DNA of 24,000 nt from Clostridium sp. (GCA_029257045.1 JARIDB010000068.1:3095-27094); one strand, 5' to 3'. Counted from the stretch's first letter, positions 1 to 21,374 are shown. Notes: generated by a model not told the origin, from the letters alone. A program made the numbers and translations.

Positions 1-909
1 AAAGGAAATAGAACTTTCTCTCATTTCTAAAAAGGTATTTTCATTTATATTACCTAATTTATATTTATCAATAGAATAAAAATCACAAGGATAAGCATCC
101 CCATTAGCTTCAATAACATAATAACAACTACATATCCCAGATACACCGCAGTTTTCAGGGGCTTCACCAAGTATCATTTGAATATAATTATCGAAAAGTC
201 TTATGCTAGTATAATTTCCAGTAAAATAATCATTTTTATAAATTTTGAATAAAGTATTCAAAGCATAGGTATAATCATTATTTTGTAATGAATATTTATT
301 TGGTGATTCAACTGATTCTAAGGGTTCTAAACAAGGAATAAATTGAAGGTAGTTAAATCCTTGCTTTTTATAAAAGTTATAAACTTTATTAATATGTTTA
401 GCATTAAAGGCTGTTAATACACAAAGTATATTAAAAGGCACATTATATTTATTTAATATATTTGTAGATTTTAGCACTCTATTAAATGTTCCCTTAAAAC
501 CTTGAAATGTTCTTAGCTCATCATTTATTTCTTTTGGGCCATCTAAAGATATTCCAACTAGAAAATCATTTTTTTTAAAAAACTTTGCCCAGTCGGTATC
601 TATTGTATAGCCATTTGTTTGTATTGAATATTGGATATTGGCATTGTATATATTATGTTTATTTACTGCTTCAACAAAATACTCAAAATATGATAAACCA
701 GCTAAAGTAGGTTCACCACCTTGAAATGCAAAGCTTACAACTTTATTAGAAGGTATAAGAGCATTTTTTATAATGTTTAAAGCTGTAGTTTCAGTCATAA
801 TTCCATTGGAGTATGATTCACGATTTGCAGCTACATCCTTGTAAAAGCAATATTTACAGCTTAAATTACAAAGAGAAGATGCAGGTTTAATTAAAATTGA
901 AATAGACAT
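1..909 (-). CDS. Anaerobic sulfatase-maturating enzyme (radical SAM, anSME type); N-terminal 303 codons, C-terminus lies beyond the window edge
   Basis: This ORF is absent from the ORF track because it is open to the window edge. My minus-strand translation from the ATG at 909..907 reads MSISILIKPASSLCNLSCKYCFYKDVAANRESYSNGIMTE...FAFQGGEPTLAG...GISLDGPKEINDELR...CGVSGICSCYYVIEANGDAYPCDFY. It has the CxxxCxxC radical-SAM cluster motif and a GGEPTL motif, and the start of the Cys-rich SPASM region is collinear with Clostridium perfringens anSME as I recall it. A GGGGG SD (916..920 on the + strand as ccccc) lies 6 nt upstream of the ATG. Confidence 0.85.
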   Translation of the reverse strand, partial: MSISILIKPASSLCNLSCKYCFYKDVAANRESYSNGIMTETTALNIIKNALIPSNKVVSFAFQGGEPTLAGLSYFEYFVEAVNKHNIYNANIQYSIQTNGYTIDTDWAKFFKKNDFLVGISLDGPKEINDELRTFQGFKGTFNRVLKSTNILNKYNVPFNILCVLTAFNAKHINKVYNFYKKQGFNYLQFIPCLEPLESVESPNKYSLQNNDYTYALNTLFKIYKNDYFTGNYTSIRLFDNYIQMILGEAPENCGVSGICSCYYVIEANGDAYPCDFYSIDKYKLGNINENTFLEMRESSISF

Positions 910-1159
910 TATTAGCCCCCTATTATGTATTTTAAAGATAATATTAAAAAAGATTAATGATTTGTGGAACATGTAAAAATATATCTTATAAGTTATAGTA
1001 CATTTTTATATATAATTAGTTTAGATACTATAACCATAGCAAAAAGTAAGAAAACTTTCTATAACTTATTACTTTTTTTAGATGTATTTACATTAATTAA
1101 AGATTAAGATGTTAGCTAATAACTGTAACTTTAATGGATTTTAAGGTATATTGATAAGT

Positions 1160-1320
1160 ATTATATTGCTAATTTAATGACAACAATATACATATAAAAC
1201 AACACAATATTGTTATATAAAAAACGTTTACTTTGAATTATACTACAAGTACAAAGAAATATAACATAGTATAAAGAAAGATAAGAAAATATAAAATGTT
1301 TAAAGGGGGAAAAGGGAATT
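1160..1320 (+). promoter_or_regulatory. Promoter/5' leader copy A upstream of the permease-GH112 operon; paralogous to 8697..8852
   Basis: By manual alignment it is collinear with 8697..8852. Shared blocks are taatttaa, aacaatata, aacacaatat, AACGTTTAC, ttatactacaa and aaatataa. The last 42 nt (ataagaaaatataaaatRtttaaagggggaaaagRgaatt + ATG) differ at only 3 positions. A possible sigma-A promoter is TTGCTA(1166..1171)-17-TACATA(1189..1194). Confidence 0.6.
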
Positions 1321-2205
1321 ATGAGAAAGTCGGAAAAGCAATTTATTTTTGCTTGCATGGCACCAGCTGTGATTCTTGTAACAATATTTATGGTAATACC
1401 AACATTTAATGTATTTAGAATGTCTTTATACAAATGGGGGGGGATTTCTAATAATAGAACATTCCAAGGATTTAAAAACTTTGGAATTATAATGAAGGAT
1501 AAAAACTTCTTGCAATCTATGCAAAACTCGATTCTAATTATTACACTTGTAACAATTTTCACATTAATAATTGCAATATTCTTTGCTGCAGTACTATCTA
1601 AAGAGAATATTAAAGGAAAAAACTTCTTTAGAATAATATTTTACATACCTAATATATTAAGTATTGTAGTTATCTCAGCTATTTTTGGAGCAATTTATGA
1701 TCCTCAATCAGGACTATTAAATAGTATGCTTGGTTTCTTAAACTTAGATAACTTGAAAAGAATGTGGATGGGGGACCCTAATGTAGTAATCTATTCATTA
1801 ATTTTTGCTCTTGTTTGGCAGGCAATTGGATATTACATGGTTATGTATATGGCAAGTATGGCTTCTGTTCCAGATAGTTATTATGAGGCAGCTGGATTAG
1901 ATGGAGCAGGTAAAATTAAACAGTTTTTCACAATTACCTTACCACTAATTTGGAGCAACATTCGTACAACTTTAACATTTTTTGTTATTAGTACAATTAA
2001 CCTAAGCTTCTTAATGGTTCAAATTATGACAGGTGGCGGTCCTAATGGACAAACTGAAGTGTTCCTAAATTATATGTATAAGCAGGCATATACAGCATCA
2101 GCTTATGGTTATGGTATGGCAATTGGAGTAGTAGTATTCTTATTCTCCTTTATTTTATCTGCCGTAATTAATAAAATTACTGAGCGTGAAGCTCTAGAGT
2201 TTTAG
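1321..2205 (+). CDS. Carbohydrate ABC transporter permease (MalF/UgpA-like, CUT1 family)
   Basis: 294-aa polytopic membrane protein with an SD (aaaggggg/aaggga) upstream. It has CUT1-type permease sequence features (EAAGLDGAGKIKQFFTITLPL, the EAA loop). Confidence 0.85.
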   Translation: MRKSEKQFIFACMAPAVILVTIFMVIPTFNVFRMSLYKWGGISNNRTFQGFKNFGIIMKDKNFLQSMQNSILIITLVTIFTLIIAIFFAAVLSKENIKGKNFFRIIFYIPNILSIVVISAIFGAIYDPQSGLLNSMLGFLNLDNLKRMWMGDPNVVIYSLIFALVWQAIGYYMVMYMASMASVPDSYYEAAGLDGAGKIKQFFTITLPLIWSNIRTTLTFFVISTINLSFLMVQIMTGGGPNGQTEVFLNYMYKQAYTASAYGYGMAIGVVVFLFSFILSAVINKITEREALEF

Positions 2206-2215
2206 GAGGTAAGAT

Positions 2216-3112
2216 ATGAAAAATATTAAAGACACAAAATCAAATAATAAAAAAAATAATAGAAGTTTATATAAAATATTTATTTATATAGCGTTAATTA
2301 CTCTAGCAGTTTCAATTATTGTACCAGTTTTATGGGTGTTTATGGCAAGCCTTAAATCTAATTCTGAGTTTGTGGGCAAAGATATTAATCCTTTTGCATT
2401 TCCTAAAGAATTAATATGGGAGAACTTTAATGTTGCTTTTGGTAAAGCAAAGATGGGTGAATACTTATTAAACTCTGTAATTGTTACAACAATGGCACTT
2501 GTTATTTTATTATTAGTAGCATTGCCAGCATCTTATTGCTTGGCTAGGTTTGAGTTTAAAGGTAAAAAGTTTTTAAGTGCTGGATTTATGGCAGGTTTAT
2601 TTATTAATGTTAACTATATTGTAGTTCCAATATTCTTAATGTTAAGTGCAACAAATAGAATGCTAGATGTTAAGTTCTTCTTAAATAATAGATTTATCCT
2701 GGCTTTAGTTTATGCATCAACCCATTTACCATTTACTATTTATTTGTTAAGTGGATACTTTAAAACATTACCTAAAGCTTATGAAGAGGCAGCATTAATT
2801 GATGGTTGTGGATATTTTAAAACAATGCTTAAAATTATGATTCCTATGGCTAGACCAAGTATTATTACAGTTATATTATTTAACTTTTTAGCTTTCTGGA
2901 ATGAGTATATTATTTCATTTACACTAATGACTACAACAAATAAAACTTTACCAGTTGGGTTACAGAACCTAATGGCAGTTGAAAAGACAGCAACAAATTA
3001 TGGAATTATGTATGCAGGATTAGTAATTGTAATGTTACCTACATTAATTTTATATATTTTAGTACAGAAAAAACTCACACAAGGTATGAGTCTTGGTGGA
3101 TTAAAAGATTAA
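2216..3112 (+). CDS. Carbohydrate ABC transporter permease (MalG/UgpE-like, CUT1 family)
   Basis: 298 aa, with an AGGAGG SD 10 nt after the previous stop. The EAA loop reads EEAALIDGCGYFKTMLKIMIPMARP. It is tightly linked to the upstream permease gene. Confidence 0.85.
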   Translation: MKNIKDTKSNNKKNNRSLYKIFIYIALITLAVSIIVPVLWVFMASLKSNSEFVGKDINPFAFPKELIWENFNVAFGKAKMGEYLLNSVIVTTMALVILLLVALPASYCLARFEFKGKKFLSAGFMAGLFINVNYIVVPIFLMLSATNRMLDVKFFLNNRFILALVYASTHLPFTIYLLSGYFKTLPKAYEEAALIDGCGYFKTMLKIMIPMARPSIITVILFNFLAFWNEYIISFTLMTTTNKTLPVGLQNLMAVEKTATNYGIMYAGLVIVMLPTLILYILVQKKLTQGMSLGGLKD

Positions 3113-3123
3113 GGAGGATTATT

Positions 3124-5286
3124 ATGGCAAAGACAAAGGGGAGAGTTACGTTACCAAGTGAAAGTAACTTCCTTAATGAGACAAAAGAATTATTATCACG
3201 TTGGGGTGCAGATGCTATTAGAGATAGTGATGGTACAAAACTTAGTGATGATATTAAAAAGTTAGATGCAAAAATATATACAACATATTTTGTTGCAAGA
3301 GGGCATAATGATTTTGCAGAAAAACATATGGATGAATGTCAACAAATCTATTTAATGAGTGAATATATATTAGCTACATCTAATAGCTTAGAAATAAACT
3401 TCTTAGCTTCTTATTATGATAAGCAAGTAAAAGCAGATTATGATCACGATCCAAAAGTATGGTGGGAAGTTATAGATAGAACAACAAATAAAGTTGTTTC
3501 TTCTGAAAGTTGGGATTATGATAAAGAAAATAATATAGTTAAGGTAAAGGATTGTACACCTTTCCATGAATATACTCTTTCATTCCTTGCATATATATTA
3601 TGGGACCCAACACAAATGTATAATCATATTACAAATAATTGGGGTGATGTGCCTCATGATATACCTTTTGATTTAAGAAAACCAAATTCAAAGAAGTTTG
3701 CTACTGAATACTTAACACAGTGGTTAAAGGATAATGCTGATACAGATGTTGTACGTTTTACAACTTTCTTCTATCACTTTACATTAATTTTTAACAACTT
3801 AGCAAAAGAGAAGTTTGTAGATTGGTGTGGATATGGTGCTAGCGTTTCTACAGAGGCAATTCTAGCTTTTGAAGAAGAATATGGATATAGATTAACTCCT
3901 GAAGTATTTGTACAAAATGGTTATTATAACTCAACATTTTGTGTTCCTACAAAGGAATATAAAGAATTTATTGATTTCCAACAAAGATTCGTATCTAAAA
4001 CTGCAAAAGAGTTAGTTGAATTAACTCATAAAGCTGGTAAGGAAGCGATGATGTTTCTTGGAGATAACTGGATAGGTACTGAACCTTATGGTAAGTATTT
4101 TAGTGACATTGGATTAGATGCAGTTGTAGGAAGTGTTGGAGGAGGAGCTACTCTTAGATTAATATCTGACATTCCTGGTGTAAAATATCATGAAGGAAGG
4201 TTTTTACCATACTTCTTCCCAGATACTTTTTATGAAGGAAATGATCCAACTATAGAAGCTATTGATAATTGGTTAAGTGCAAGACGTGCTATTATGAGAA
4301 AGCCAATAGATCGTATTGGATATGGTGGATACCCTAGTTTAGCTTACAAATTCCCTAAGTTTGTGGACTATATAGAAAAAACTTGTGATGAGTTTAGAGA
4401 AATTTATGATACTATTCACAATCAAAAACCATACTGTGGATTAAAAGTAGCTATTTTAAATAGCTGGGGAAAATTAAGAAGCTGGCATCCTTACATGGTT
4501 GCACATGCTTTATATTGTAAACAAATTTACTCTTATAATGGAATATTAGAATCCCTTAGTGGAGCTAGCGTAGATGTAATATTTATAAGTTTTGATGATA
4601 TAAAAGAAAATGGTATCCCAGAAGGTATTGATGTAATAATAAATGCTGGTGATGCGAGCACTGCATTCTCTGGTGGAGATGTTTGGGCTGATCCTAAGTT
4701 TGTAGCAAATATACGTGAGTGGATTTATAACGGTGGAGGTTTTGTTGGAATGGGTGAACCTACAGCCTTTGAAAATGGCGGTCATTACTTCCAATTAGCA
4801 GATGCCTTTGGTGTAGATAAAGAATTAGGATTTACATTACACACTGATAAGTACTTCCACAAAGAAGTAGGAAAACATTTTATTATAGAAGATAAAGTGG
4901 AAGACTATGACTTTGGTGAAGGTATGAAAAATATTTATGCAACAAAAGAGTCTACACAAATAATTGCTTATAGTGATGGAGAAGTAAATATTTCAAGTAA
5001 TGATTATGGAAAAGGCAGATGTGTATACATTGCAGGACTTCCATATTCAGAGCAAAATACTCGTTTATTAATGAGATCTTTATACTATTGTGCAAATAAA
5101 GAAGAAGAATTTAAGAAATGGTATGCAGATAATTTATATTGTGAAGTACATGCATATCCAAGTGCTAATAAATATGCGATTTTAAATAATACAAATAAAG
5201 AACAAGTTACTAATGTTTATGACGGTAATGGAAATAGTGTTCAGGTTACTTTAGAACCTGGTGAAATTAGATGGATGGTGATGTAG
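3124..5286 (+). CDS. lnpA: 1,3-beta-galactosyl-N-acetylhexosamine phosphorylase (GH112; galacto-N-biose/lacto-N-biose phosphorylase family)
   Basis: The 720-aa product is collinear from end to end with Bifidobacterium longum LnpA as I recall it. Matching segments include GRVTLPSE, WGADAIRDSDGT, VVRFTTFFY, GKEAMMFLGDNWIGTEPY, IPGVKYHEGRFLPYFFPDTFYEGNDP, ILNSWGKLRSW and YGKGRCVYIAGLPYS. The exact acceptor specificity (GNB, LNB or Gal-Rha) cannot be read from the sequence. Confidence 0.9.
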   Translation: MAKTKGRVTLPSESNFLNETKELLSRWGADAIRDSDGTKLSDDIKKLDAKIYTTYFVARGHNDFAEKHMDECQQIYLMSEYILATSNSLEINFLASYYDKQVKADYDHDPKVWWEVIDRTTNKVVSSESWDYDKENNIVKVKDCTPFHEYTLSFLAYILWDPTQMYNHITNNWGDVPHDIPFDLRKPNSKKFATEYLTQWLKDNADTDVVRFTTFFYHFTLIFNNLAKEKFVDWCGYGASVSTEAILAFEEEYGYRLTPEVFVQNGYYNSTFCVPTKEYKEFIDFQQRFVSKTAKELVELTHKAGKEAMMFLGDNWIGTEPYGKYFSDIGLDAVVGSVGGGATLRLISDIPGVKYHEGRFLPYFFPDTFYEGNDPTIEAIDNWLSARRAIMRKPIDRIGYGGYPSLAYKFPKFVDYIEKTCDEFREIYDTIHNQKPYCGLKVAILNSWGKLRSWHPYMVAHALYCKQIYSYNGILESLSGASVDVIFISFDDIKENGIPEGIDVIINAGDASTAFSGGDVWADPKFVANIREWIYNGGGFVGMGEPTAFENGGHYFQLADAFGVDKELGFTLHTDKYFHKEVGKHFIIEDKVEDYDFGEGMKNIYATKESTQIIAYSDGEVNISSNDYGKGRCVYIAGLPYSEQNTRLLMRSLYYCANKEEEFKKWYADNLYCEVHAYPSANKYAILNNTNKEQVTNVYDGNGNSVQVTLEPGEIRWMVM

Positions 5287-5289
5287 TCT

Positions 5290-5457
5290 ATGAGTACAAC
5301 AATAAAAACAGGTATTAATATTGTCGCTTTTGTAGTGTTTTTATCAATGATTATTATAGGACAAAAACATATTGGAGTTCCAGGATTATGCACAATGCTA
5401 GTTGGACTTACTGGACTTCTTACACAGTTATTTTTATATAATAAAAAGAATAAGTAA
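5290..5457 (+). CDS. Small hypothetical membrane protein (55 aa, two predicted TM helices), below the ORF-track size cutoff
   Basis: The ATG lies 3 nt after the GH112 stop, suggesting coupling, with a weak GGTGAT SD. My translation is MSTTIKTGINIVAFVVFLSMIIIGQKHIGVPGLCTMLVGLTGLLTQLFLYNKKNK, i.e. two hydrophobic segments and a basic tail. I recognise no family. Confidence 0.4.
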   Translation: MSTTIKTGINIVAFVVFLSMIIIGQKHIGVPGLCTMLVGLTGLLTQLFLYNKKNK

Positions 5458-5560
5458 TTTAATTAATAAAAAAGGTGCTGTGGCACAATTAAAAAGATGA
5501 CAGATGATTTTACTTTAGAAACTTTTAAAATATGAAATTGTATAAATTTTGAAATGATAC

Positions 5561-5604
5561 TTGATAAGAATACCCTTATGGTGTAATATTACACTATAGG
5601 GGTA
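5561..5604 (+). promoter_or_regulatory. Sigma-A promoter of the XRE gene overlapped by a 34-bp near-perfect palindrome (candidate autoregulatory operator)
   Basis: The promoter reads TTGATA(5561..5566)-17 nt-TAATAT(5584..5589). The palindrome TACCCTTATGGTGTAAT|ATTACACTATAGGGGTA spans 5571..5604 with 15 of 17 positions symmetric and is centred on the -10. It could alternatively fold as an RNA hairpin (the two mismatches become G-U pairs) followed by TTTTG. Confidence 0.55.
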
Positions 5605-5661
5605 TTTTGTTAATTGAGTAATGTTTAATTAATGTAGAAGTATAACAAAGGTGGAAACGTA

Positions 5662-6114
5662 ATGACAAAAAGTGAATTTATAAAAAAAGTAGATGAAAAG
5701 GTTAGATTAATAAGATTAGAAAAAGGATACACGCAAGATAAAATGGCAGAAATAATTGGAATATCTAAAAAGACTCTTGTTCAAGTTGAAAAGGAAAGAA
5801 GTAGTTTAGGCTGGTCAGCTGCTATTGCAGTATGTATTATTTTTAATGCAAGTGAAATATTAGAATTAACATTTGGAGGTGACGTAGAAGAGATAATTAG
5901 ATCATTATCATTTGAAAACAATGAAAGAGGGTATATGATGCCCACCCTTGGGGGAAAGATTTGGTGGAAGGATATACAAACTAAAGAGGGATATATAGTT
6001 CAACAAAATATAATATCAAATCATTACAGAATTTTAGATAGTAATTATAGAAGAATCTGTTATTCCTTTGAGATTGAATATATAAACCAAAGATTTAGTG
6101 AACTGACTAAGTGA
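5662..6114 (+). CDS. XRE-family helix-turn-helix transcriptional regulator with an uncharacterised C-terminal domain
   Basis: 150 aa. The N-terminal HTH_3-like segment is LIRLEKGYTQDKMAEIIGISKKTLVQVEKERSS. The SD is AAGGTGGA. I cannot assign the C-terminal ~70 aa (GGKIWWKDIQTKEGYIVQQNIISNHYRILDSNYRR). Confidence 0.75.
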   Translation: MTKSEFIKKVDEKVRLIRLEKGYTQDKMAEIIGISKKTLVQVEKERSSLGWSAAIAVCIIFNASEILELTFGGDVEEIIRSLSFENNERGYMMPTLGGKIWWKDIQTKEGYIVQQNIISNHYRILDSNYRRICYSFEIEYINQRFSELTK

Positions 6115-6209
6115 AAATTTTAGATAGTATTAAAAAATAAAAGGGTACTAAAAGATAAAAAGGTGTTAAAAGATAAAATATAATTTTTACAGAAATTTAA
6201 GGGGGATTT

Positions 6210-6734
6210 GTGGTGAATACTAAAAAAAGTATAAAAATTTATAATGTGGTTTTTCCTATTTGGCTGCTTTGGCTTTTTCCTTTAACTTGGATAGTTGTTT
6301 TACCAGGAAATTTTATAATAGATTCTTTGGTTGTTTTAATAACATTAAAGTTATTAAATATTAGTAATATTAAAAACGTATACAAGAAAACTATTATTAA
6401 AGTTTGGTTATTTGGTTTTCTATCTGATTTTATAGGAACAGCAATAATGCTTATGCCTGAACTTATAGAGAGTAAGGCTCCTGTTGCCTATAGAGAATGG
6501 TGGTATAAAAACCTAACATCAGCTGTTTCATATAATCCATTTAAAAGTGGTTATGCAGTTGCTTGGATTTTAATGGCAATGATTATAACTTCATTTTTTA
6601 TTTACTTATTTAATTATAAAATAAGTTTTAAAAAGTTGGATATGGAAGAAAAGACAAAGAAAAAACTTGCACTATCTCTAGCAATCTTTACTGCACCATA
6701 TTTATTTCTTTTACCTACAATGTGGTTTGCTTAG
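6210..6734 (+). CDS. Hypothetical integral membrane protein (about 4-5 TM helices)
   Basis: 174 aa, GTG start preceded by an AAGGGGGA SD. The protein is hydrophobic throughout and I recognise no motif. Confidence 0.5.
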   Translation: MVNTKKSIKIYNVVFPIWLLWLFPLTWIVVLPGNFIIDSLVVLITLKLLNISNIKNVYKKTIIKVWLFGFLSDFIGTAIMLMPELIESKAPVAYREWWYKNLTSAVSYNPFKSGYAVAWILMAMIITSFFIYLFNYKISFKKLDMEEKTKKKLALSLAIFTAPYLFLLPTMWFA

Positions 6735-6763
6735 AGCTTATTCATTCATCAAAATTAATGGGG

Positions 6764-6793
6764 GCTGTGGCACTAATTATTTAGTGCCACAGC
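6764..6793. terminator. GC-rich hairpin between convergent genes (13-bp stem GCTGTGGCACTAA / TTAGTGCCACAGC, loop TTAT)
   Basis: The inverted repeat is perfect and can be read directly. There is no clean U-tract on either side, so terminator function is uncertain. Its left arm recurs at 5477..5491. Confidence 0.4.
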
Positions 6794-6794
6794 T

Positions 6795-6903
6795 CATCTA
6801 CCAAAAGAAGAGAGGTAGATGATCCATTACTTATAGTGAACATATAATGGTTTGAGATGACTTGGAGCGTAGCGACTGAATAAGCAAACTATTATATGTT
6901 CAC
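6795..6903. repeat. Diverged third copy of the two-hairpin repeat element found in tandem at 8383..8552
   Basis: Hairpin 1 is CATCTACC(6795..6802)/GGTAGATG(6814..6821), identical in its stems to the 8434..8459 hairpin. It is followed by TCC.TTA, TAGTGAAC and a loop carrying AGCGTAGCG, all motifs shared with the 87-bp units. Hairpin 2 is GTGAACATATAATGGTTTG(6836..6854)/CAAACTATTATATGTTCAC(6885..6903). Confidence 0.5.
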
Positions 6904-6910
6904 CTTTTTT
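6836..6910 (+). terminator. Long-stem hairpin plus T-run; likely rho-independent terminator for the 6210..6734 transcript, with the U-tract overlapping the sulfatase stop codon
   Basis: The stem is 19 bp with one mismatch and the loop is 30 nt. It is followed directly by CTTTTTT (6904..6910). Confidence 0.45.
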
Positions 6911-8363
6911 ATAATATATTAGATAAGTTATTTAATGGTTTACAACCATCTTTAAGATTAACTCCATCACTATAACCTTCTTCTCTATCCTTCAATTCTT
7001 TAATTAAACAATTTCTTAAATAAGTAATACGGTCTTTATGAGAAGGATCATTAATTAAATTATGCTCTTCTCTAGGATCTTCTTTAAGATTAAAGTACTG
7101 TTCTTCATTTTTTTCACTATACCATATAAATTTATCTGATTTTGTAACAATATACTGATTAGATAAATTAGAGTGAAAACTATGCTCTCCATGGATATAT
7201 TCACGATTATTTATTTCATCTCCACGAATTTCTGGAGCAAGTGAGAATCCATCAACACCTTCGGGAACTTCTATTCCAGCAAAATCTAAAATAGTAGGGA
7301 GAATATCTCTAAGTTCTGCAAGTGTATCACTTCTAAATGGTGACATATGTTTTATATTATCACCAACATGAATAATTAATGGAATATGAGTGCTTCCTTC
7401 ATATGGAAATGCCTTACGATATAAGTTGTTATCAAATAAAAGCTCACCGTGGTCTGATAAAAACAAAATAATTGAATTATCGTAGGTTCCATCTTCCATT
7501 AAAGAAGTAAGAAGTCTACCTATTTGATGATCAACATGGGTAATGCAAGCATAATATCCACACATAGCATCATGGCGAAGTTCTTCATCTTTGCATCCAT
7601 AAATTGAATCTTTTATGCTTCCATATTTTTCAGTAAGGCTAGGATCCACCCAATCTCCCTTTGCTGGTTCCCTTAAAGATTTATTTTTATATAAATCAAA
7701 GTAAGTTTGTGGTGCATCAAAAGGTTGATGAGGACGAACAAAGGAACTCATTAAAAAAAATGGTTTTGTACGATCTCTTGTTTTTAGAAAACGGATACTT
7801 TCATCTACTACCCAATTTGTAGGATGAAGTTTTTCTTCATAAATCCAAGGATGAGTAACCCAAGAATTACATTCAGGACCTGTTGCATTAAAGTCGGCAT
7901 GTTGCCCTTCTTTACCTTTTAAATAGTATAAGTAATCATCTGTTACTTCTTGATGTTGATAATGAGGTATAACACTATTTCTATAATGTCCTAAATATCC
8001 ATCATGTAGCTTTAAGTTATTAAATCCACAGGAAAGACGAGGAGGATGTACATGCATTTTACCAATACATTGTGTTTGGTAACCGCTATCAGATAGTTTC
8101 TGGGCAAGCATATGTTTATAGTTCCATGGAATTCCATCTTCATAACCAACACGTCCATGATTTATTTGACTTTTTCCAGTAAATAAAGCAGCTCTAGCAG
8201 GAATACAACTAGGACAGGCTGAGTATGTTCTATCAAAAGAGACACCTTTGGTGGCAAGTGTATCTAAGTAAGGAGTCTTTACATCTGGATGACCTTTAAA
8301 AGATAAAGCATCACCACGAAATTGGTCGCACATTAATAGTATAATATTTGGTTGTTTCATCAT
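6909..8363 (-). CDS. Cys-type sulfatase (formylglycine-dependent, S1 family), no signal peptide, so predicted cytoplasmic
   Basis: I trimmed the ORF-track ORF 6909..8633 to MMKQPNIILLMCDQFRGD. ATG codons at 8363 and 8360 follow the strong SD AAAGGGGA (8366..8373). The sulfatase signature SACPSCIPARAALFTGK contains C-x-P-x-R (Cys codon 8205..8207). Other family motifs are LLMCDQ, GKMH and LFLSDHGE. The upstream 90 codons are the translated 87-bp repeats, and no SD precedes 8633. Confidence 0.85.
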   Translation of the reverse strand: MMKQPNIILLMCDQFRGDALSFKGHPDVKTPYLDTLATKGVSFDRTYSACPSCIPARAALFTGKSQINHGRVGYEDGIPWNYKHMLAQKLSDSGYQTQCIGKMHVHPPRLSCGFNNLKLHDGYLGHYRNSVIPHYQHQEVTDDYLYYLKGKEGQHADFNATGPECNSWVTHPWIYEEKLHPTNWVVDESIRFLKTRDRTKPFFLMSSFVRPHQPFDAPQTYFDLYKNKSLREPAKGDWVDPSLTEKYGSIKDSIYGCKDEELRHDAMCGYYACITHVDHQIGRLLTSLMEDGTYDNSIILFLSDHGELLFDNNLYRKAFPYEGSTHIPLIIHVGDNIKHMSPFRSDTLAELRDILPTILDFAGIEVPEGVDGFSLAPEIRGDEINNREYIHGEHSFHSNLSNQYIVTKSDKFIWYSEKNEEQYFNLKEDPREEHNLINDPSHKDRITYLRNCLIKELKDREEGYSDGVNLKDGCKPLNNLSNIL

Positions 8364-8382
8364 AATCCCCTTTCTTGGCATT

Positions 8383-8552
8383 GAACACTTAGTGAACTCA
8401 AGTGTAGCGTAGAGTGAACTTAGTGTGAAAGCCCATCTACCGAATATATGAGGTAGATGTTCCTTATACGAACACTTAGTGAACTCAAGCGTAGCGTAAA
8501 GTGAACTTAGTGTGAAAGGCAATCTACCGAATTTATAAGGTAGATGTTCCTT
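8383..8552. repeat. Two tandem copies of an 87-bp structured repeat in the sulfatase 5' leader
   Basis: Unit 1 is 8383..8469 and unit 2 is 8470..~8552. By my hand alignment there are 6 mismatches in ~83 aligned nt. Each unit has the hairpin CATCTACC-N10-GGTAGAT(G/T) (e.g. 8434..8441/8452..8459). Each also has a second imperfect hairpin (ACACTTAGT/ACTTAGTGT arms) whose loop carries AAG(T/C)GTAGCGTA. Confidence 0.8.
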
Positions 8553-8696
8553 TAGCTTTATATTACAACCATAATAAGCTTTGCTTAACTTTTCTATAAC
8601 TTCATCGTTTTTATTAATTAGATATATATTCATTGAAGTTTAAAAAGTAACTTATAGATGTAATTTTTTTAAGTATATCACTATTTATTCATAAGA

Positions 8697-8852
8697 ATTA
8701 CATTATTAATTTAAGAATAACAATATATATATAAAATAACACAATATCATTATGTGAATAACGTTTACAGTAGGTTATACTACAAATGAAAATAAATATA
8801 ATACAAACAAATATAAGAAAATATAAAATATTTAAAGGGGGAAAAGAGAATT
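8697..8852 (+). promoter_or_regulatory. Promoter/5' leader copy B upstream of the solute-binding protein gene; paralogous to 1160..1320
   Basis: See copy A. The candidate promoter here is TTATTA(8703..8708)-17-TATATA(8726..8731), and the conserved core AACGTTTAC is at 8760..8768. The spurious antisense ORFs 1161..1562 and 8780..9049 both contain FSPFK[HY]FIFSY, which independently shows the duplication. Confidence 0.6.
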
Positions 8853-10193
8853 ATGAAAAAATTATTATGTATGTCATTAGTAGCTCTTATGGCTACAACT
8901 ACACTTGTTGGATGTGGATCTAAAACAGAAAAACCAAATGCTACTGAAGGTAATAAAAGAGTTTTAAAGGTTGCTGCCTTCGAAGGTGGAAACGGAAGAG
9001 CAATATGGGAAAACCTTGAAAAGGATTTTGAAGCTGCAAATAAAGACATAGATGTTCAATTACAACTTTCATCAAAATTAGATGAGGAATTACGTCCTCA
9101 AATGCAAAATGGAGAATACCCAGATGTAGTTTACTATAATATGGGACAAAAGAGTGGGTTCACTGAAACAATGATTAAAGAAGAAGCTTTATTAGATATT
9201 TCAGATGTATTTACAGGTGAATTAAAAGAAAAGTTAGCTGATGGATTTGCTGAGAACGCAATTACTCAACCATATGGAGATGGAAAAACTTATTTAGCTC
9301 CAGTATTCTATTCACCAACAGGATTATGGTATGACGGATCTAAATTTGAAGAAGGAAAAGCACCAGCTACATGGGATGAAATGTGGGCATATGGTGATAA
9401 ATTAAAAGGAGAAGGTAAAGCGTTATTTACTTATCCTCAATCAGGATACTTAGATGGAACATTATTTGCAATGTTATATCAAGCTGGTAATGCAGATTAC
9501 TACAAAAAAGCATTAGAATATGATGCTAATACTTGGAACTCAAAAGAGGGACAACTAGTAATAGATACAGTTTCTAAATTGGCTGGATATACTTGGGATG
9601 CAACTGTAGCAAATGCAAATAGTGATGGTGGATTTAAGAAAAATCAACAATCTGTAATAGATGGTGATGCAGCATTTATGCCTAATGGAAACTGGGTAGT
9701 TGGAGAAATGGCTGAGTCAACTCCAGAAAACTTTAAATGGGGATTTATGCCTTTACCAGCATATGAAAAAGGTGGAGACCGTTATGCTTATACATTCTTT
9801 GAACAAGTTTGGGCACCAAAAGAAGCTAAAAATCCAGAGGATGCTAAAGAATTTATCAAATTTTTATATTCAGATACAGCAATTGATATTATGTTAAAAA
9901 ATGAAGTGACAAATAAAGAAGGAAAAGTAGTTCCATCACCAGTTGTTCAACCGGTTAAAGGAATCGTTGAAAAACTTGATGGAGATATGAAGCTGTTCTA
10001 TAGTATTTATGAAACAGAAGGAGTATTACCAGCATTAGGAAACTGGGCTACAACAGATACAATTGAAGGATTAGACTTTAAGAAAGATGTATATGGAGCA
10101 ATGGATTCATTAGTTGATAGATCAATGACTGCTGATGGGTGGAAAGCTCAATTAAATGAAACATTTGCAAAATGTAAGGCAGCACTTAAGTAG
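8853..10193 (+). CDS. ABC transporter extracellular solute-binding lipoprotein (family 1, sugar-binding)
   Basis: 446 aa. The lipoprotein signal is MKKLLCMSLVALMATTTLVGC (lipobox LVGC). Size and composition are typical of CUT1 sugar-binding proteins. It is the presumed partner of the permeases at 1321..3112, based on the shared leader. Confidence 0.8.
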   Translation: MKKLLCMSLVALMATTTLVGCGSKTEKPNATEGNKRVLKVAAFEGGNGRAIWENLEKDFEAANKDIDVQLQLSSKLDEELRPQMQNGEYPDVVYYNMGQKSGFTETMIKEEALLDISDVFTGELKEKLADGFAENAITQPYGDGKTYLAPVFYSPTGLWYDGSKFEEGKAPATWDEMWAYGDKLKGEGKALFTYPQSGYLDGTLFAMLYQAGNADYYKKALEYDANTWNSKEGQLVIDTVSKLAGYTWDATVANANSDGGFKKNQQSVIDGDAAFMPNGNWVVGEMAESTPENFKWGFMPLPAYEKGGDRYAYTFFEQVWAPKEAKNPEDAKEFIKFLYSDTAIDIMLKNEVTNKEGKVVPSPVVQPVKGIVEKLDGDMKLFYSIYETEGVLPALGNWATTDTIEGLDFKKDVYGAMDSLVDRSMTADGWKAQLNETFAKCKAALK

Positions 10194-10207
10194 TTAAAAT
10201 AAGTTAT

Positions 10208-10246
10208 AAAGGGTGAATTAGTATAATTCACCCTTTATTTTTATTT
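10208..10246 (+). terminator. Rho-independent terminator after the binding-protein gene
   Basis: The stem is AAAGGGTGAATT(10208..10219)/AATTCACCCTTT(10225..10236) with loop AGTAT, followed by ATTTTTATTT. Confidence 0.8.
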
Positions 10247-10365: not shown

Positions 10366-10983
10366 ATGATATTTTTAAAAGGAATTATTATTGGTATGTT
10401 CGTTAGTTTTCCAGTTGGTCCATTAGGATTATTAGGGATACAAAGAACTATAAGTAAAGGGTGGAAGCTTGGCTTTTTATCTGGAGTTGGTGCAGCTGTA
10501 TCAGACTTAATATACTCTTCTATTGCTGTATTAGGGATAAGCTTTATTGAGGGGTTTCTAAATAAAAATAGATACCTAATTAACGAGATAACTGGAATAT
10601 TATTTTTAATTGTTGGAATTAACATAATTATGAGCGGAATAGAAAAAGGTAAAGTTAAGGACGTTAATAAAGAAGAATCAATGCATCCATTTTTCATTCA
10701 TTTCTTATTGGGATTATCAAATCCAATGACATTTATTATATTTTTTACAATATTCACAAGAACAGGTATAAGTGTTGATAATGGTGGCATGATACAAAAT
10801 ATAATGTTTGTTATATCAATCCTTATAGGCTCTTGTCTTATCTGGTTGATAACAACTAACATAATTGAAAGAACAAAAAAAAGACTTAAATTTGAAAGCT
10901 TTATATTTATGGATAAAATAATTGGAACTATTATTGTTTTATTTGGAGTCTTTAGTGTATTAAAAGGGTTAATAAGATTTTAA
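10366..10983 (+). CDS. LysE/RhtB-family amino-acid exporter
   Basis: 205 aa with about six TM helices. The N-terminus GIIIGMFVSFPVGPLGLL matches the family's conserved PxGP start region. Confidence 0.65.
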   Translation: MIFLKGIIIGMFVSFPVGPLGLLGIQRTISKGWKLGFLSGVGAAVSDLIYSSIAVLGISFIEGFLNKNRYLINEITGILFLIVGINIIMSGIEKGKVKDVNKEESMHPFFIHFLLGLSNPMTFIIFFTIFTRTGISVDNGGMIQNIMFVISILIGSCLIWLITTNIIERTKKRLKFESFIFMDKIIGTIIVLFGVFSVLKGLIRF

Positions 10984-13314: not shown

Positions 13315-14019
13315 TTGAGACGTAAGATATTAAAAGAAATAGAAAAGATTCCAAATTCTAATAGTGAATATTTTAAACAGTTACTTCAAAATGACACATT
13401 AAACTATTGTAAGGTTATAACAATAGAAGTTGGAACAAGATTTGTAACTTCAAAGGAAGATGTAAATAAGATCTGGATACTTTTATTAGGTAAAGTTAGA
13501 GCCTTAGAAGAGTATACTAGCGGAGATATTTATATATTCCAGAGGTTTGTTGCCCCGGAAGTGTTTGGGGAAATGGAAGCATTAGCTGAAATACCACACT
13601 TTAGAGCTTCATTAATAGCAGAAACAAAATGTGTATTTATTACTCTTCCAGTTATTCTATATTTGAATTTTTTGAAAGATAATTCAGAATTCCTATATAA
13701 AAGAACTCAATCTACGTTAAAGCGGGTTTTAGATGAAGAACGAGATAATAGAATATACCTTATGCTAAAGGGAATTGATAGAGTAAAAATGTATTTTATT
13801 CAACATTATGAAATAAGTGAAGTAGAAGGAATTTGTATCTTGAGAATTACAAGGCAACATATAGCTGATGAAACTGGATATTCTCTTAAAACAATAAATC
13901 GAGTTTTGAAAAGTCTAAAGGAACAAAAGTTTTTAGATACTGTAGGTCAAAAGATATTAATTACGGAAAATCAATACATAAAGATGATAGAAAGTATAGA
14001 AGAAATAAAAAAGTGTTAA
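13315..14019 (+). CDS. Crp/Fnr-family transcriptional regulator (cNMP-binding-like effector domain plus C-terminal HTH)
   Basis: 234 aa, TTG start 7 nt after GAGGT. The effector-domain motif is FGEMEAL and the C-terminal HTH is RQHIADETGYSLKTINRVLKSLKEQKFL. There is no N-terminal Cys cluster, so it is not a classical Fe-S FNR. Confidence 0.8.
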   Translation: MRRKILKEIEKIPNSNSEYFKQLLQNDTLNYCKVITIEVGTRFVTSKEDVNKIWILLLGKVRALEEYTSGDIYIFQRFVAPEVFGEMEALAEIPHFRASLIAETKCVFITLPVILYLNFLKDNSEFLYKRTQSTLKRVLDEERDNRIYLMLKGIDRVKMYFIQHYEISEVEGICILRITRQHIADETGYSLKTINRVLKSLKEQKFLDTVGQKILITENQYIKMIESIEEIKKC

Positions 14020-14051
14020 TAATTAATAATATAAAAAGGGAGTTATGGTAA

Positions 14052-15548
14052 ATGACTAATGTATTAGAGATAGTTACATCAAAAAAACTAACATATGAAC
14101 AAAAGGTATTTTCCTTAGCACATGCAGCTGAAGATAGTTTAGAGGTATTTGAAATATCTGAGAAGGCAAAATATTACTTTGAAAAAGAAGCAATATGTAA
14201 TCTTTTTGAAGGTAATGCACCTTATAGACCTAGATATATAATGCCAGATTATGATAAGTTTATTAAAAATGGTAGTGCTTTTTTAGAATTGAACCCTCCA
14301 GAAGATTTGGACGAGCTATTAAATTCATTAATGGTTCTTTATCGTCATGTTCCGTCTATTACAAGTTTTCCTGTTTACTTAGGTAACTTAGATAAGATGA
14401 TTGATCCTTTCTTAGAAGGACATAGTGATGAAGAAATTAAGAAAAAGCTTAAACTGTTTTTAAATTATTTAGATAGAACAATTACTGATAGTTTTTGTCA
14501 TGCAAATCTTGGACCAGAATACACAAGAGCTTGTAAGTTAATATTAGAAGTAGAGAGGGAATTACAAAATGCAGTTCCAAATTTCACTTTCAAATATGAT
14601 CCAGATATAACTCCAGATGATATAGCAGAATTAAGTCTTTACACTAGTTTATTCTGTGCAAACCCTGCAATGTGTAATCATAAAATCCATAAGGATACAT
14701 ATCCTTGCGATTACGGTATTTCTAGTTGCTATAATATACTACCAATAGGTGGTGGAGCTTATACTCTTTCTAGAATAACTCTTCCAGGATTAGCAAAGTT
14801 AGCAGAAACTAAAGAACAATTTTTAAATGAACTTCTTCCAGATTGCCTTAATTCAATGGGTGATTATATGAATAAAAGAGTAAGCTTTTTAGTAGAAGAA
14901 TCAGGATTCTTTGAAAGTTCATTTTTAGTAAAAGAAGGATTGATTGACCCAGATAAATTTATTGGAATGTTTGGACTTACAGGTTTAGCTGAATGTGCAA
15001 ATATTTTATTAGAGGGATCAGGTAAGAAATATGGACATGATGAAGACGTAGATAATTTAGCAGATGAAATTATGAATATCATATCTGAATTTGCAGCAAA
15101 CTTCCAAGCAAAATATTCAAAAATTTCAGGAGGACACTTTATGCTTCATGCTCAAGTTGGCCTTGATAGTGATTTTGGAATTACTTCAGGAGTTAGAATT
15201 CCAGTTGGTGATGAACCAGAAGATTTAGGAAAGCATCTTCGTCATAGCTCTCGCTTCCATAAGTTAATTACTACAGGATGTGGAGATATATTCTCAATGG
15301 AAACTACTACGAGAAATAATCCTTCTGCTATTTTAGATATTGTAAAAGGTGCATTTTTAATTGGTGTAAAATATATAAGTTTTTATGAGAAAAATAGTGA
15401 TTTAGTAAGAATTACAGGATACCTAGTTAAAAGAAGTGAGATGGAGAAATTTAGAAATAATGAAACTGTATTACAAAATACTACTCAGCTAGGTGGACCA
15501 AACTATGATAATAATAGATTGGCAGATAGAAAGGTTAGGGGAGTATGA
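14052..15548 (+). CDS. yjjI: YjjI-family glycyl-radical enzyme (short GRE, substrate unknown)
   Basis: 498 aa. The C-terminal glycyl-radical motif is DLVRITGYLVKR (Gly456, nt 15417..15419), of the RVxG[FWY] type. Its length is similar to E. coli YjjI (about 500 aa). It is immediately followed by, and overlaps, a YjjW-type activase gene. Confidence 0.75.
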   Translation: MTNVLEIVTSKKLTYEQKVFSLAHAAEDSLEVFEISEKAKYYFEKEAICNLFEGNAPYRPRYIMPDYDKFIKNGSAFLELNPPEDLDELLNSLMVLYRHVPSITSFPVYLGNLDKMIDPFLEGHSDEEIKKKLKLFLNYLDRTITDSFCHANLGPEYTRACKLILEVERELQNAVPNFTFKYDPDITPDDIAELSLYTSLFCANPAMCNHKIHKDTYPCDYGISSCYNILPIGGGAYTLSRITLPGLAKLAETKEQFLNELLPDCLNSMGDYMNKRVSFLVEESGFFESSFLVKEGLIDPDKFIGMFGLTGLAECANILLEGSGKKYGHDEDVDNLADEIMNIISEFAANFQAKYSKISGGHFMLHAQVGLDSDFGITSGVRIPVGDEPEDLGKHLRHSSRFHKLITTGCGDIFSMETTTRNNPSAILDIVKGAFLIGVKYISFYEKNSDLVRITGYLVKRSEMEKFRNNETVLQNTTQLGGPNYDNNRLADRKVRGV

Positions 15549-16381
15549 TAACAGCACCAATAAATAGGATTATTCCTTACAGTGTTGTTGATGGACCAGG
15601 TAATCGTACTTCAATCTTTTTACAAGGATGTAATATTAGATGTGCATACTGCCATAATCCAGAAACTCAAAATACTTGTTGTAATTGTGGAATATGTATA
15701 GATGTATGCAAATCATCAGCCTTATCTCTTGTAGATGGTAAGGTTATATGGGATGAAGAAAAATGTACTATGTGTGATAGCTGCATAAATATATGTCCTC
15801 ATAATGCATCACCTAAGATAAAAATGATGACTTCAGAAGAATTATTCATGGAAGTAAAAAAGAATATTCCATTTATCCGTGGAATTACAGTCTCTGGGGG
15901 AGAGTGTACTTTACATCCAGAATTTTTACTAGAACTTTTCACATTAGCTAAGGCAGAAAAATTAACATGCCTAATAGATAGTAATGGTATGGTAGATTTC
16001 ACTTTATATCCTGAGTTATTAAAAAAGTGTGACGGGGTAATGCTTGATGTTAAAGCATGGAATCTTAGCATTTATAAGAAACTTACAGGGTTTGGTAACG
16101 ATATTGTAAAGAAGAACCTGAAACTTTTGTCAGATAAGAACAAAATTGAAGAATTAAGAATTGTATGTATGCCAAATGAAGTTGATGCAGAAGATGTAAT
16201 TCAAGGAATTACCCAGATTATTGGAGAAAAGGTTGCAGATACAAAATTAAAATTGATAAAATTTAGACATTATGGCGTAAAAGGAAAATTAGAAAATATA
16301 AAAAGTCCAGATGATGAATATATGGATAATTTACATCAGAAGGCAATTAAAGCAGGATTTAAGAAGATTATTTTAACATAA
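15545..16381 (+). CDS. yjjW: YjjW-family glycyl-radical enzyme activating enzyme (radical SAM)
   Basis: 278 aa. The N-terminus reads VVDGPGNRTSIFLQGCNIRCAYCHNPET (CxxxCxxC). Two ferredoxin-like Cys clusters follow (CCNCGICIDVC and CTMCDSCINICP). An ATGA start/stop overlap with the upstream GRE gene suggests translational coupling. Confidence 0.85.
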   Translation: MITAPINRIIPYSVVDGPGNRTSIFLQGCNIRCAYCHNPETQNTCCNCGICIDVCKSSALSLVDGKVIWDEEKCTMCDSCINICPHNASPKIKMMTSEELFMEVKKNIPFIRGITVSGGECTLHPEFLLELFTLAKAEKLTCLIDSNGMVDFTLYPELLKKCDGVMLDVKAWNLSIYKKLTGFGNDIVKKNLKLLSDKNKIEELRIVCMPNEVDAEDVIQGITQIIGEKVADTKLKLIKFRHYGVKGKLENIKSPDDEYMDNLHQKAIKAGFKKIILT

Positions 16382-16477
16382 TAATAAAATCTATTAGTAT
16401 TTTATTATTTAATTTTAATAGAAATCATAAAAATTATTTTAAAATAATATATCAAATAACGGGGGGAATTTTTTATT

Positions 16478-17527
16478 ATGAAAAAAAGAATTTTAGGATT
16501 AATGTTAACGGTAAGTATGGTAGTTTCCTTGGCAAGTTGTGGAACAAAAGGTTCTGAAGTTGGTGGAAAAAAAGGGGATAAAGCCAAGTCAGAATTCTCT
16601 GTTGCAATGGTAGCGGACACCGGTGGTGTAAATGATCAAAGTTATAATCAATCTGCATGGGAGGGATTACAAGAGTTTGGTAAAGAAACAGGAGCCAATG
16701 TAAGTTATTTAGAATCTACTCAAGCATCTGATTTTTCATCTAACTTTGATAAGTTATCTGATCAAGACTTAAATTTAATATGGGGAATCGGATTCATTAT
16801 GGCAGATTCACTTTTAGAGGCTGCAAAGATGAACCCTGATAAAACATATGCAATTATTGATAATGAATATGGTGCAAACACACCTGAAAATTTAGCATGT
16901 GCTGTATTTAATGTTCAAGACTCATCTTTCTTAGTAGGGTACATAGCTGGTTTAACAACAAAGACAAACAGAGTAGGATATATTGGTGGAATGAAGAGTC
17001 CTACTATGGATTTATTCGAATATGGATATAGAGCAGGCGTAGATTATGCAGCTAAAGAATTAGGAAAAGAGATAGCAGTTGATATTCAATTTGCAGAAAG
17101 CTTTACAGATGCAGCAAAAGGTAAAGCAATGGCAGCTTCTATGTATAATTCAGGAGCAGATATTTTATTCCATGCTGCTGGTGGTGTAGGTGTTGGTGCA
17201 ATTGAACAAGCGGTAGAAGAAAATAAGCTTATAATTGGTGTAGACCGTGATCAAACTTATTTAGCTCCTAAGAATATTTTAACTTCAGCTCTTAAGATAG
17301 TAGGTGTTGCAACAAAAGAACTTACTAAAGAGGTTATGGATGGTAATGAAATTGGAGGAAAAACATTTACTTATGGATTAAAAGAAGGAGCAGTAGGTAT
17401 CCCAGAAAATAATCCAAATATGGATTCAAAAGTATATAAAAAGGCAATGGAAATTCAACAATTAATTAAAGATGGAAAAGTAGTTGCTCCTTATAGCGAA
17501 GAAAGTTACGCTGAATTTAGCAAATAA
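16478..17527 (+). CDS. BMP-family (PnrA/Med-like) nucleoside-binding ABC transporter lipoprotein
   Basis: 349 aa. The lipoprotein signal is MKKRILGLMLTVSMVVSLASC. BMP-family motifs are VADTGGVNDQSYNQSAWEG, GYIGGM and IIGVDRDQ. Confidence 0.85.
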   Translation: MKKRILGLMLTVSMVVSLASCGTKGSEVGGKKGDKAKSEFSVAMVADTGGVNDQSYNQSAWEGLQEFGKETGANVSYLESTQASDFSSNFDKLSDQDLNLIWGIGFIMADSLLEAAKMNPDKTYAIIDNEYGANTPENLACAVFNVQDSSFLVGYIAGLTTKTNRVGYIGGMKSPTMDLFEYGYRAGVDYAAKELGKEIAVDIQFAESFTDAAKGKAMAASMYNSGADILFHAAGGVGVGAIEQAVEENKLIIGVDRDQTYLAPKNILTSALKIVGVATKELTKEVMDGNEIGGKTFTYGLKEGAVGIPENNPNMDSKVYKKAMEIQQLIKDGKVVAPYSEESYAEFSK

Positions 17528-17604
17528 TAACTTTGACAATAAAAAGTAATTTCTATTATTAGAAGTTATAGTTTATAGTATGTAATTTGTTTTTTGAAAT
17601 TAAT

Positions 17605-17645
17605 ATAAAAAAGGGATTGTGAAATAAAAACATGTCCCTTTTTTA
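17605..17645 (+). terminator. Intra-operon rho-independent terminator/attenuator after the binding-protein gene
   Basis: AAAAAAGGGA...TCCCTTTTTT, with GGGA at 17613..17616, TCCC at 17635..17638 and a T-run at 17639..17644. Confidence 0.6.
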
Positions 17646-17781
17646 ATTTGAACAAAGGTAAAAAATCAATAATAGGATTTGTTTATAATAGACAACTGCA
17701 CATAGATTAAATGATTTTATAAAGTGTAGTTATCATGGTTTGTATGGAACATTGTAGTAAATAAGTGGGGGGAACATATTT

Positions 17782-21336: not shown

Positions 21337-21374
21337 ATAATAATAATAAAATTAATATAAAGGAGATACTAGAT

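Follow-up and report, generated by a model that had tools for sequence, protein, structure and literature searches.

A stretch of 24,000 nucleotides from Clostridium sp. (GCA_029257045.1, JARIDB010000068.1:3095-27094, here G000:C52:3095-27094), referred to as the window, was analyzed for a gene cluster in which a predicted importer and a phosphorylase for galacto-N-biose (GNB) and lacto-N-biose (LNB) stand together with a sulfatase and an anaerobic sulfatase-maturating enzyme (anSME). The host genome is a metagenome-assembled genome (MAG) of 188 contigs, 84.7% complete, and the window is AT-rich (26-34% G+C). On the plus strand, the genes of two ABC permeases of CUT1 type, the MalF/UgpA-like permease 1 (perm1, 1321..2205) and the MalG/UgpE-like permease 2 (perm2, 2216..3112), both matching PF00528, were followed by a gene for a 1,3-beta-galactosyl-N-acetylhexosamine (GNB/LNB) phosphorylase of glycoside hydrolase family 112 (GH112, 3124..5286). 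A leaderless Cys-type S1 formylglycine sulfatase, S1_46-like, was encoded on the minus strand (6909..8363), and the substrate-binding lipoprotein (SBP) of a GNB/LNB-type ABC importer, a homologue of Blon_0883/BiGFL-BP, on the plus strand (8853..10193). The anSME gene, of radical-SAM/SPASM type, lay on the minus strand at 1..909 with its 5' 303 codons; it extended 230 bases past the window start, and the whole gene (G000:C52:2864-4003) encoded 379 aa. Every feature that the original prediction had placed here was found in its place by profile matches and motifs, including the divergence of anSME (minus) from perm1-perm2-GH112 (plus), and the gene identities are secure. Perm1 and perm2 were 84-93% and 84-89% identical, respectively, to their counterparts in related genomes.

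The GH112 protein scored 1071 bits to TIGR02336 (cut-off 560) and displayed a three-domain architecture (PF09508, 705 bits; PF17385, 315 bits; PF17386, 77 bits). It also scored 850 bits to the B. longum phosphorylase GLNBP (3WFZ/2ZUS), the segment FLGDNW being aligned with FLGDQW and the catalytic Asp, D313 of the B. longum enzyme, kept. Based on family membership, the product is predicted to phosphorolyse Gal-beta1,3-HexNAc. The SBP scored 530 bits to TIGR03850 (cut-off 299), carried the lipobox LVGC, and had 9H0N (Blon_0883/BiGFL-BP) as its closest solved relative (E 1.4e-94). Blon_0883, of B. longum subsp. infantis, has similar affinity for GNB, for LNB and for two fucosylated trisaccharides, H1 and Lewis-a (PMC12345172). 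The equivalents of G47, Y208, D210, W290, E294 and E327, which contact the Gal and HexNAc rings, were conserved in the SBP and in 30 related SBPs from GH112 loci. The two proteins share a fold with side cavities admitting decorated disaccharides (9H0N/9H0O/9H0P; PMC12345172), whereas residues of the fucose cavity were replaced in the SBP (Q98M, S100Q, T101K and T205Q). The SBP is homologous to the binding protein of GNB/LNB-type importers, and the corresponding ligand binding is predicted. The Lys at T101 was considered as a mark of sulfate binding and rejected, since the near-identical sulfatase-free module L053 has the same Q-K pair; K/R or D-P at the fucose-cavity positions did not track sulfatase linkage.

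The sulfatase started at 8363 with MMKQPNIILLMCDQ, and a Shine-Dalgarno (SD) sequence, AAAGGGG, was located 5-6 nt upstream. The match to PF00884 (174.6 bits) ran from residue 5 and the fold began at residue 3-5. The score to NF010322 was 602.9 bits (cut-off 481), and that to NF052527 (Mn_arylsulf) was 460 bits, below the cut-off of 850. The SCIPAR motif of the original prediction contains the Cys-type formylglycine motif C53-I-P-A-R57, and D13, Q14, C53, P55, R57, K102, H104, Q280, D304 and H305 were conserved across the clade, as judged on 15 members. In 18 related sulfatase genes, stop codons were found 0-25 codons upstream of the common M-x-K-P-N-I-I-L start. Because the fold starts at residue 3-5, no room is left for a signal peptide or lipobox in the sulfatase or its clade; the predicted lack of both held, and by its N-terminus and the upstream stops of its relatives the sulfatase differs from exported mucin sulfatases, which are recognized by these elements. 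The sulfatase is a predicted cytoplasmic protein, and its whole clade appears leaderless. An alternative open reading frame (ORF) of 574 aa with its start at 8633 was rejected as spurious, since it reads through a tandem repeat in the sulfatase 5' leader that created it, is absent in relatives, and relatives have stops upstream of the start equivalent to 8363. This repeat of ~87 bp (8383..8552) is a two-hairpin unit with none like it in the intergenic regions of relatives, and an assembly break of the Logan contigs described below fell at 8416.

The full anSME scored 362.9 bits to TIGR03942 (cut-off 349.45) and 437.2 bits to NF010321, just under the cut-off of 441. Its radical-SAM CX3CX2C motif read CNLSCKYC, and the SPASM cysteines, with nine C-terminal Cys, were present. 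In the 85% complete host genome, it was the only anSME found, and it lies beside the only S1 member of the NF010322 family found there. However, the anSME by the permeases, genuine as predicted, was not the orthologue of the sulfatase-adjacent anSME of relatives, to which it was just 41-46% identical, the other genes reaching 82-93%, and five relatives were without a closer anSME orthologue; on these two grounds, a role as the ancestral partner of the sulfatase was ruled out. Since the sole anSME stands beside the sole such sulfatase, that it matures this sulfatase is still the obvious inference. The C. perfringens arylsulfatase with anSMEcpe, the seed of NF010322/NF010321, is another member of this sulfatase family, placed in clade II of the tree below, and shares the same maturation chemistry.

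Linkage of the sulfatase and GH112 in other genomes

The GTDB species genomes were scanned with the sulfatase, and eight relatives with 61-88% identity were obtained. Besides C. sartagoforme, C. nigeriense and further Clostridium sp., their sources were Anaerorhabdus and a MAG of Erysipelotrichaceae, and in 8/8 the sulfatase directly adjoined SBP-perm-perm-GH112. The order was then sampled evenly with 401 genomes, in which the sulfatase was called at the NF010322 level and linkage was defined as a position within 12 kb. The sulfatase was present in 24 genomes and GH112 in 77, and the pair was linked in 13 of the 24. Within the genus of the window, linkage was found in 12 of 13 genomes, the exception being a 78%-complete genome with no GH112 found. 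With related genomes not independent in these counts, the linkage is far above chance, by which fewer than 1% of 3.5-Mb genomes with one copy of each gene would be expected to show it. The original prediction had named absence of this gene linkage from related genomes as evidence against itself; the linkage was present there, in at least four distinct architectures and with sulfatase identity down to about 50%.

In type B1, a leftward SBP-perm1-perm2-GH112 unit next to MsrA and a rightward sulfatase diverge from a common promoter region (P), and the sulfatase is followed in its own direction by an optional anSME gene and by AraC. Type B2 consists of a leftward AraC and then GH112, NTP-transferase, APH/NahK-like kinase, PGM, SBP, two permeases, GH95 and sulfatase. 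The GH95 domain begins at residue 5, and therefore the type B2 fucosidase would be cytoplasmic as well. Type A contains BadF-type kinase, GH112, histidine kinase (HK), response regulator (RR), SBP, two permeases and sulfatase. In Anaerorhabdus, a leftward AraC is followed by SBP, two permeases, GH112 and sulfatase, and a GH101 gene lies 6.5 kb downstream; no plus-strand terminator was found between GH112 and the sulfatase, and a 14-bp hairpin stood after the sulfatase. Some of the architectures are co-directional and operon-like, that of Anaerorhabdus for example.

In the maximum-likelihood tree of the sulfatase, the clade of the window (B1, Anaerorhabdus and B2) was GH112-linked in 12/12 members, and the C. 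perfringens-like clade was mixed. The neighbours of one unlinked sulfatase (G346) were an ABC importer, AraC, ROK, GalE, LnpC-like and NahK-like genes, as well as another sulfatase. Two single loci deserve description. In L002, of the Erysipelotrichaceae bacterium UBA3379 MAG, SBP, perm1 and sulfatase were 78-86% identical to those of the Clostridium module, GH112 was only 52% identical, and an ABC ATPase gene lay in between; either the locus was recently acquired by horizontal transfer and repaired as a mosaic, or its contig was mis-binned. In L020, of type B2, the GH112 gene (G145:C72:1340-3481) was split into two ORFs by an in-frame TGA and is possibly a pseudogene, with the downstream importer and sulfatase intact.

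Candidate route for sulfated GNB/LNB and its alternatives

Genes for other parts of a GNB/LNB route were sought in the host genome. A large LPXTG-anchored GH101 endo-alpha-N-acetylgalactosaminidase, also carrying GalBD-like and F5/8 type C domains, was encoded at G000:C181:7897-12769 and cut by the contig end. Enzymes of class GH101 release GNB from core-1 O-glycans, and the protein on C181 is likely the extracellular source of GNB for the importer. A MalK-like ATPase (C185), GalE (C148) and a BadF-type HexNAc kinase (C182) were found; a GH95 homologue was not found in this 85% complete genome. The system resembles B. longum lnpABCD with GL-BP/GltABC in combining an ABC importer for Gal-beta1,3-HexNAc with a cytoplasmic GH112, and the related loci L022, L033 and L054 carry NahK-like, LnpC-like and GalE genes as well. 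Unlike it, the bifidobacterial cluster is without sulfatase or anSME, and the SBP is of Blon_0883 type, not an orthologue of GL-BP. Regulation here is probably of AraC type, and neither lnpB nor lnpC was detected in the host genome, which is 85% complete.

The nearest characterized relatives of the sulfatase were then compared. The best solved match was 9KOQ (EfAS of E. faecium, E 4e-113), and the second was 7OZ8 (E 7e-98, full length), which was taken by inference as BT1918, from the deposit list of a study of Bacteroides carbohydrate sulfatases (bioRxiv 10.1101/2021.07.23.453482). BT1918 of B. thetaiotaomicron is an S1_46 3-O-sulfo-GlcNAc sulfatase (bioRxiv 10.1101/2021.07.23.453482). EfAS is Mn-dependent and promiscuous, accepting phosphates and phosphonates as well as aryl sulfates, and it also removes the sulfate of caerulein and of estrone sulfate (PMC12421950). 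The window's sulfatase shares with BT1918 the unusual Q/H metal site (equivalents of Q292 and H318), and also the GRVGY motif (Y94) and the equivalent of R327, both N-acetyl contacts in BT1918. Y408 is replaced by H, a loss of the kind reported for gut Firmicutes (bioRxiv 10.1101/2021.07.23.453482), and the equivalent of N174 was ambiguous by one alignment column. BT1918 is Ser-type and periplasmic and serves heparin/heparan sulfate catabolism, whereas the sulfatase here is Cys-type, leaderless and GH112-linked. EfAS is likewise leaderless and Cys-type, and its D20, C61, D311 and H312 have equivalents here, but it was characterized on aryl sulfates, phosphoesters and bioactive sulfates only, with no reported glycan context. 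Judged by these alignments, the sulfatase is an S1_46-like relative of carbohydrate sulfatases, outside the subfamilies acting on 6S-GlcNAc and 3S-Gal of mucin.

On balance, the window probably holds a rearranged form of a conserved clostridial module for GNB/LNB-type uptake of host glycans and their cytoplasmic breakdown, equipped with a cytoplasmic sulfatase of its own. In the route proposed, the wall-anchored GH101 and other secreted enzymes would, by family membership, free core-1/type-1 disaccharide blocks from mucin. The SBP and the two permeases would import GNB/LNB, including sulfated forms, and would be energized by a shared MalK-like ATPase encoded elsewhere. In the cytoplasm, the anSME would convert Cys53 to formylglycine, and the sulfatase would remove the sulfate ester either from the sulfated disaccharide or from sulfated HexNAc after phosphorolysis. 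The GH112 enzyme would finally, again by family membership, split Gal-beta1,3-HexNAc to Gal-1-P and HexNAc. Comparative genomics makes a functional coupling of the sulfatase to the GNB/LNB pathway a good probability. A sulfated GNB/LNB disaccharide as its substrate is a more tentative proposal. Of the import-then-desulfation scheme as originally predicted, the linkage, the cytoplasmic sulfatase and the GNB/LNB-type importer stood; the identity of the substrate did not follow, the nearest sulfatases acting elsewhere. On a wider scale, and somewhat speculatively, Clostridiaceae and some Erysipelotrichaceae may have a cytoplasmic branch of mucin O-glycan use, in which sulfated (in some cases fucosylated) core-1/type-1 blocks are imported whole through a Blon_0883-type ABC system and stripped by an S1_46-like sulfatase, together with cytoplasmic GH95, before GH112 acts.

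Several observations weighed against this route. About 70% of the GH112-bearing genomes in the genus were without such a sulfatase, and near-identical modules occurred with and without it (L053 vs L001, and L035-38 vs L024); therefore the sulfatase is accessory and dispensable for the locus type. In C. perfringens-like genomes, which possess a GH112-HK-RR-SBP-perm-perm operon, the sulfatase was located ~500 kb from GH112 or on another contig. In the class-wide sample outside the order, the sulfatase was detected in 19 genomes and GH112 in 20, and 17 of the 19 sulfatase genomes were without GH112. In addition, the substrates of the nearest characterized sulfatases are 3-O-sulfo-GlcNAc for BT1918, and aryl sulfates together with phosphoesters for EfAS. 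The beta1,3 linkage of GNB/LNB precludes a 3-O-sulfate on HexNAc, so that a specificity of BT1918 type must differ here, or another sugar is targeted. No ligand-site residue of the SBP separated sulfatase-linked from sulfatase-free loci, and by tblastn no NahK-like or LnpC-like match was found in the 85% complete host genome.

An obligatory coupling of the sulfatase family to GH112 was ruled out by the class-wide sample, where both genes occurred in 2/19 genomes on different contigs, and by the varied contexts of the family. These contexts included HK-SBP-perm-perm-GH123-sulfatase, a heparinase-like gene with anSME, GH28, and also unrelated genes. In the locus L058 (G547:C42) of another clostridial family, the order was HK-(RR)-SBP-perm-perm-GH123-sulfatase, a beta-N-acetylgalactosaminidase replacing GH112 as the partner. 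The sulfatase family is cytoplasmic and glycan-associated with several partners, and GH112 as the partner is characteristic of the Clostridiaceae and of certain Erysipelotrichaceae.

The sulfatase could instead be a general aryl or ester sulfatase like EfAS, serving sulfur scavenging or turning over small sulfated compounds such as phenol, steroid or tyrosine sulfates and merely riding along with the GH112 locus. The rank of the promiscuous EfAS as best PDB match, the NCBIfam label 'arylsulfatase' of the family, the gain and loss of the sulfatase at the edge of otherwise identical modules, and the class-wide majority of family members in genomes without GH112 all speak for it. Nevertheless, the linkage survived at least four architectures, a fall to ~50% identity and operon-internal positions right after perm2, GH95 or GH112. 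In its other contexts, too, the family occurred in glycan loci (with GH123 and an ABC importer, with a heparinase-like gene, or with GH28), and the equivalents of the N-acetyl contacts Y94 and R327 of BT1918 were conserved. A general sulfatase was accordingly regarded as unlikely.

A second alternative, regarded as quite unlikely, is that the sulfatase acts on a sulfated monosaccharide (such as GlcNAc-6S, GlcNAc-3S or GalNAc-S) that enters otherwise, with GH112 as a neighbour through a common mucin-sugar regulon. BT1918, the closest characterized carbohydrate sulfatase, works at the level of the monosaccharide in the 0 subsite, and an AraC regulator is common to the locus types. A precedent also exists in the ats2 cluster of B. 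breve UCC2003 (AtsA2 sulfatase, AtsB2 anSME, transporter and regulator), reportedly described by Egan et al. in 2016, a study that PMC8966484 cites, as encoding an intracellular glycosulfatase, whose substrate is said to be the monosaccharide GlcNAc-6-sulfate, taken up by its own transporter. However, no separate transporter was observed beside the sulfatase in the Clostridium modules, and the sulfatase was the last gene of the SBP-perm-perm operon in several architectures.

The ats2 system, likewise of a Gram-positive gut anaerobe, resembles the route proposed here in an imported sulfated mucin sugar, a Cys-type sulfatase with adjacent anSME, and cytoplasmic desulfation, and it differs in having no known tie to GH112 or a GNB/LNB importer. 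Of the components of an ats2-type cluster, a sulfatase, an anSME and an ABC importer are neighbours in the window, and the AraC regulator is elsewhere (C183). The contrast drawn by the original prediction with secreted mucin sulfatases was fair, but the B. breve enzyme already provides a precedent. B. breve is known to desulfate a mucin sugar inside the cell after import, and the pairing with GH112 would be the new part; a literature search brought up no paper in which GH112 is linked to a sulfatase gene.

For bacteria that live on colonic mucin, its sulfation is the main obstacle, and the established solutions are exported sulfatases, as in Akkermansia and Bacteroides, and in B. breve the GlcNAc-6S route. 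If the proposed route is true, importing first and desulfating inside would be a third strategy, for Gram-positive gut anaerobes, of which some are opportunists. It would give the widespread 'arylsulfatase' family (NF010322, EfAS-like) a physiological substrate class, would represent a new S1_46-like specificity on sulfated GNB/LNB, and would explain how Gram-positive mucin foragers without secreted sulfatases handle sulfation. R. torques, a mucin degrader with GH112, is reported to be without sulfatases (PMC11323728).

Rearranged order of the module in the window

In relatives, the module is located between MsrA and AraC. In the host genome, MsrA and AraC were adjacent on C183 (G000:C183:55766-57207), ~130 bp apart with nothing between, and the module on C52 had the order perm1-perm2-GH112-[XRE, membrane ORF]-sulfatase(-)-P-SBP. 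Compared with the ancestral order, the layout of the window is, as read from these gene orders, a circular permutation cut between SBP and perm1, which would be a secondary rearrangement. The interleaving that was originally described is therefore present as a derived rearrangement, not as a designed operon, and the SBP is apart from the permeases only here.

The promoters and leaders retained traces of this event. By alignment with the intergenic regions of relatives, P (8591..8852, plus) was identified as the ancestral divergent promoter/leader of the sulfatase (minus) and SBP (plus). The promoter/leader of the SBP was present once more as P' (1056..1320, plus), which was 73% identical to 8591-8832 and now drives perm1-perm2-GH112. 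The boxes AATAACAATATATA, ACAATAT and AAACGTTTAC were conserved in the sulfatase/SBP intergenic regions of all relatives and present in both P and P', and the SD segment of P' was common only to the window's own P. The AraC-family regulator probably controls the module via these conserved boxes, a putative operator, which both halves of the module retain and whose AraC protein was left at the old site. Such a duplicated promoter/operator could keep the two halves under one regulator at the old site, and may serve as an example of operon evolution. A hairpin with a 15-bp stem followed by a T run (10206..10238, plus), which is intra-operonic between SBP and perm1 in relatives, was still behind the SBP. 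In the window, a monocistronic SBP unit ends with this hairpin, and homology to relatives ended just after it, the rearrangement breakpoint lying just past the hairpin. A tandem duplication with reciprocal losses, or the excision and re-insertion of a circle, would yield the order of the window. The module genes were 81-93% identical to those of relatives and the flanks of the old site 61-82%, a contrast which hints that the module was transferred more recently.

Several genus-mates without the sulfatase (L039, L043-L049 and L052) had the common order of a leftward AraC and perm1-perm2-GH112-SBP, with genes 42-67% identical. Since this SBP-last order is natural in them, the order of the window is convergent with a layout that already exists and works. 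Between GH112 and the sulfatase, an XRE-type helix-turn-helix gene (5662-6114, plus; HTH_3) and a membrane ORF (6210-6734, plus; no Pfam match) were found. The region 5662-6734 was absent from all related loci, had repeats or hairpins at both sides, and looks like a small inserted module. The flanks on C52 (a lipoprotein gene and DUF2935), compared in order to place the insertion boundaries there, were not syntenic in relatives.

The assembly was checked with the Logan contigs of run SRR14857237, which were 99.9% identical to the window. One contig contained anSME-P'-perm1-perm2-GH112, another SBP-hairpin-LysE-DUF2935 and a third the XRE gene and membrane ORF, so the split of the importer is independently supported; for the joints around the XRE block, the MAG assembly is the sole support. 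An interleaved layout produced by misjoining of MAG contigs at repeats is very improbable: the Logan breaks at 5581-5596, 6852 and 8416, all at repeats or hairpins, leave three joints to the MAG assembly alone, but anSME/P'/perm1 and SBP/hairpin/LysE each lie on a single Logan contig, the sulfatase/P/SBP joint is ancestral and found in all relatives, P' has diverged too far (73%) to be confused with P by an assembler, and on C183 the ancestral site stands cleanly empty.

Other genes of the window

Downstream of the hairpin, a LysE exporter gene (PF01810) was present at 10366-10983 on the plus strand. The region 13315-22697 contained genes for a Crp/Fnr regulator, a YjjI-type glycyl-radical enzyme, a YjjW activase, a Bmp-family binding protein, an ABC ATPase, permeases and a pyrimidine-nucleoside phosphorylase. 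The first BPD_transp_2 permease of this nucleoside-type ABC system was found as two ORFs (19307-19747 and 19941-20429), matching profile positions 1-90 and 136-268 and separated by a gap of ~190 nt; the split could be due to a frameshift, a pseudogene or an assembly error.

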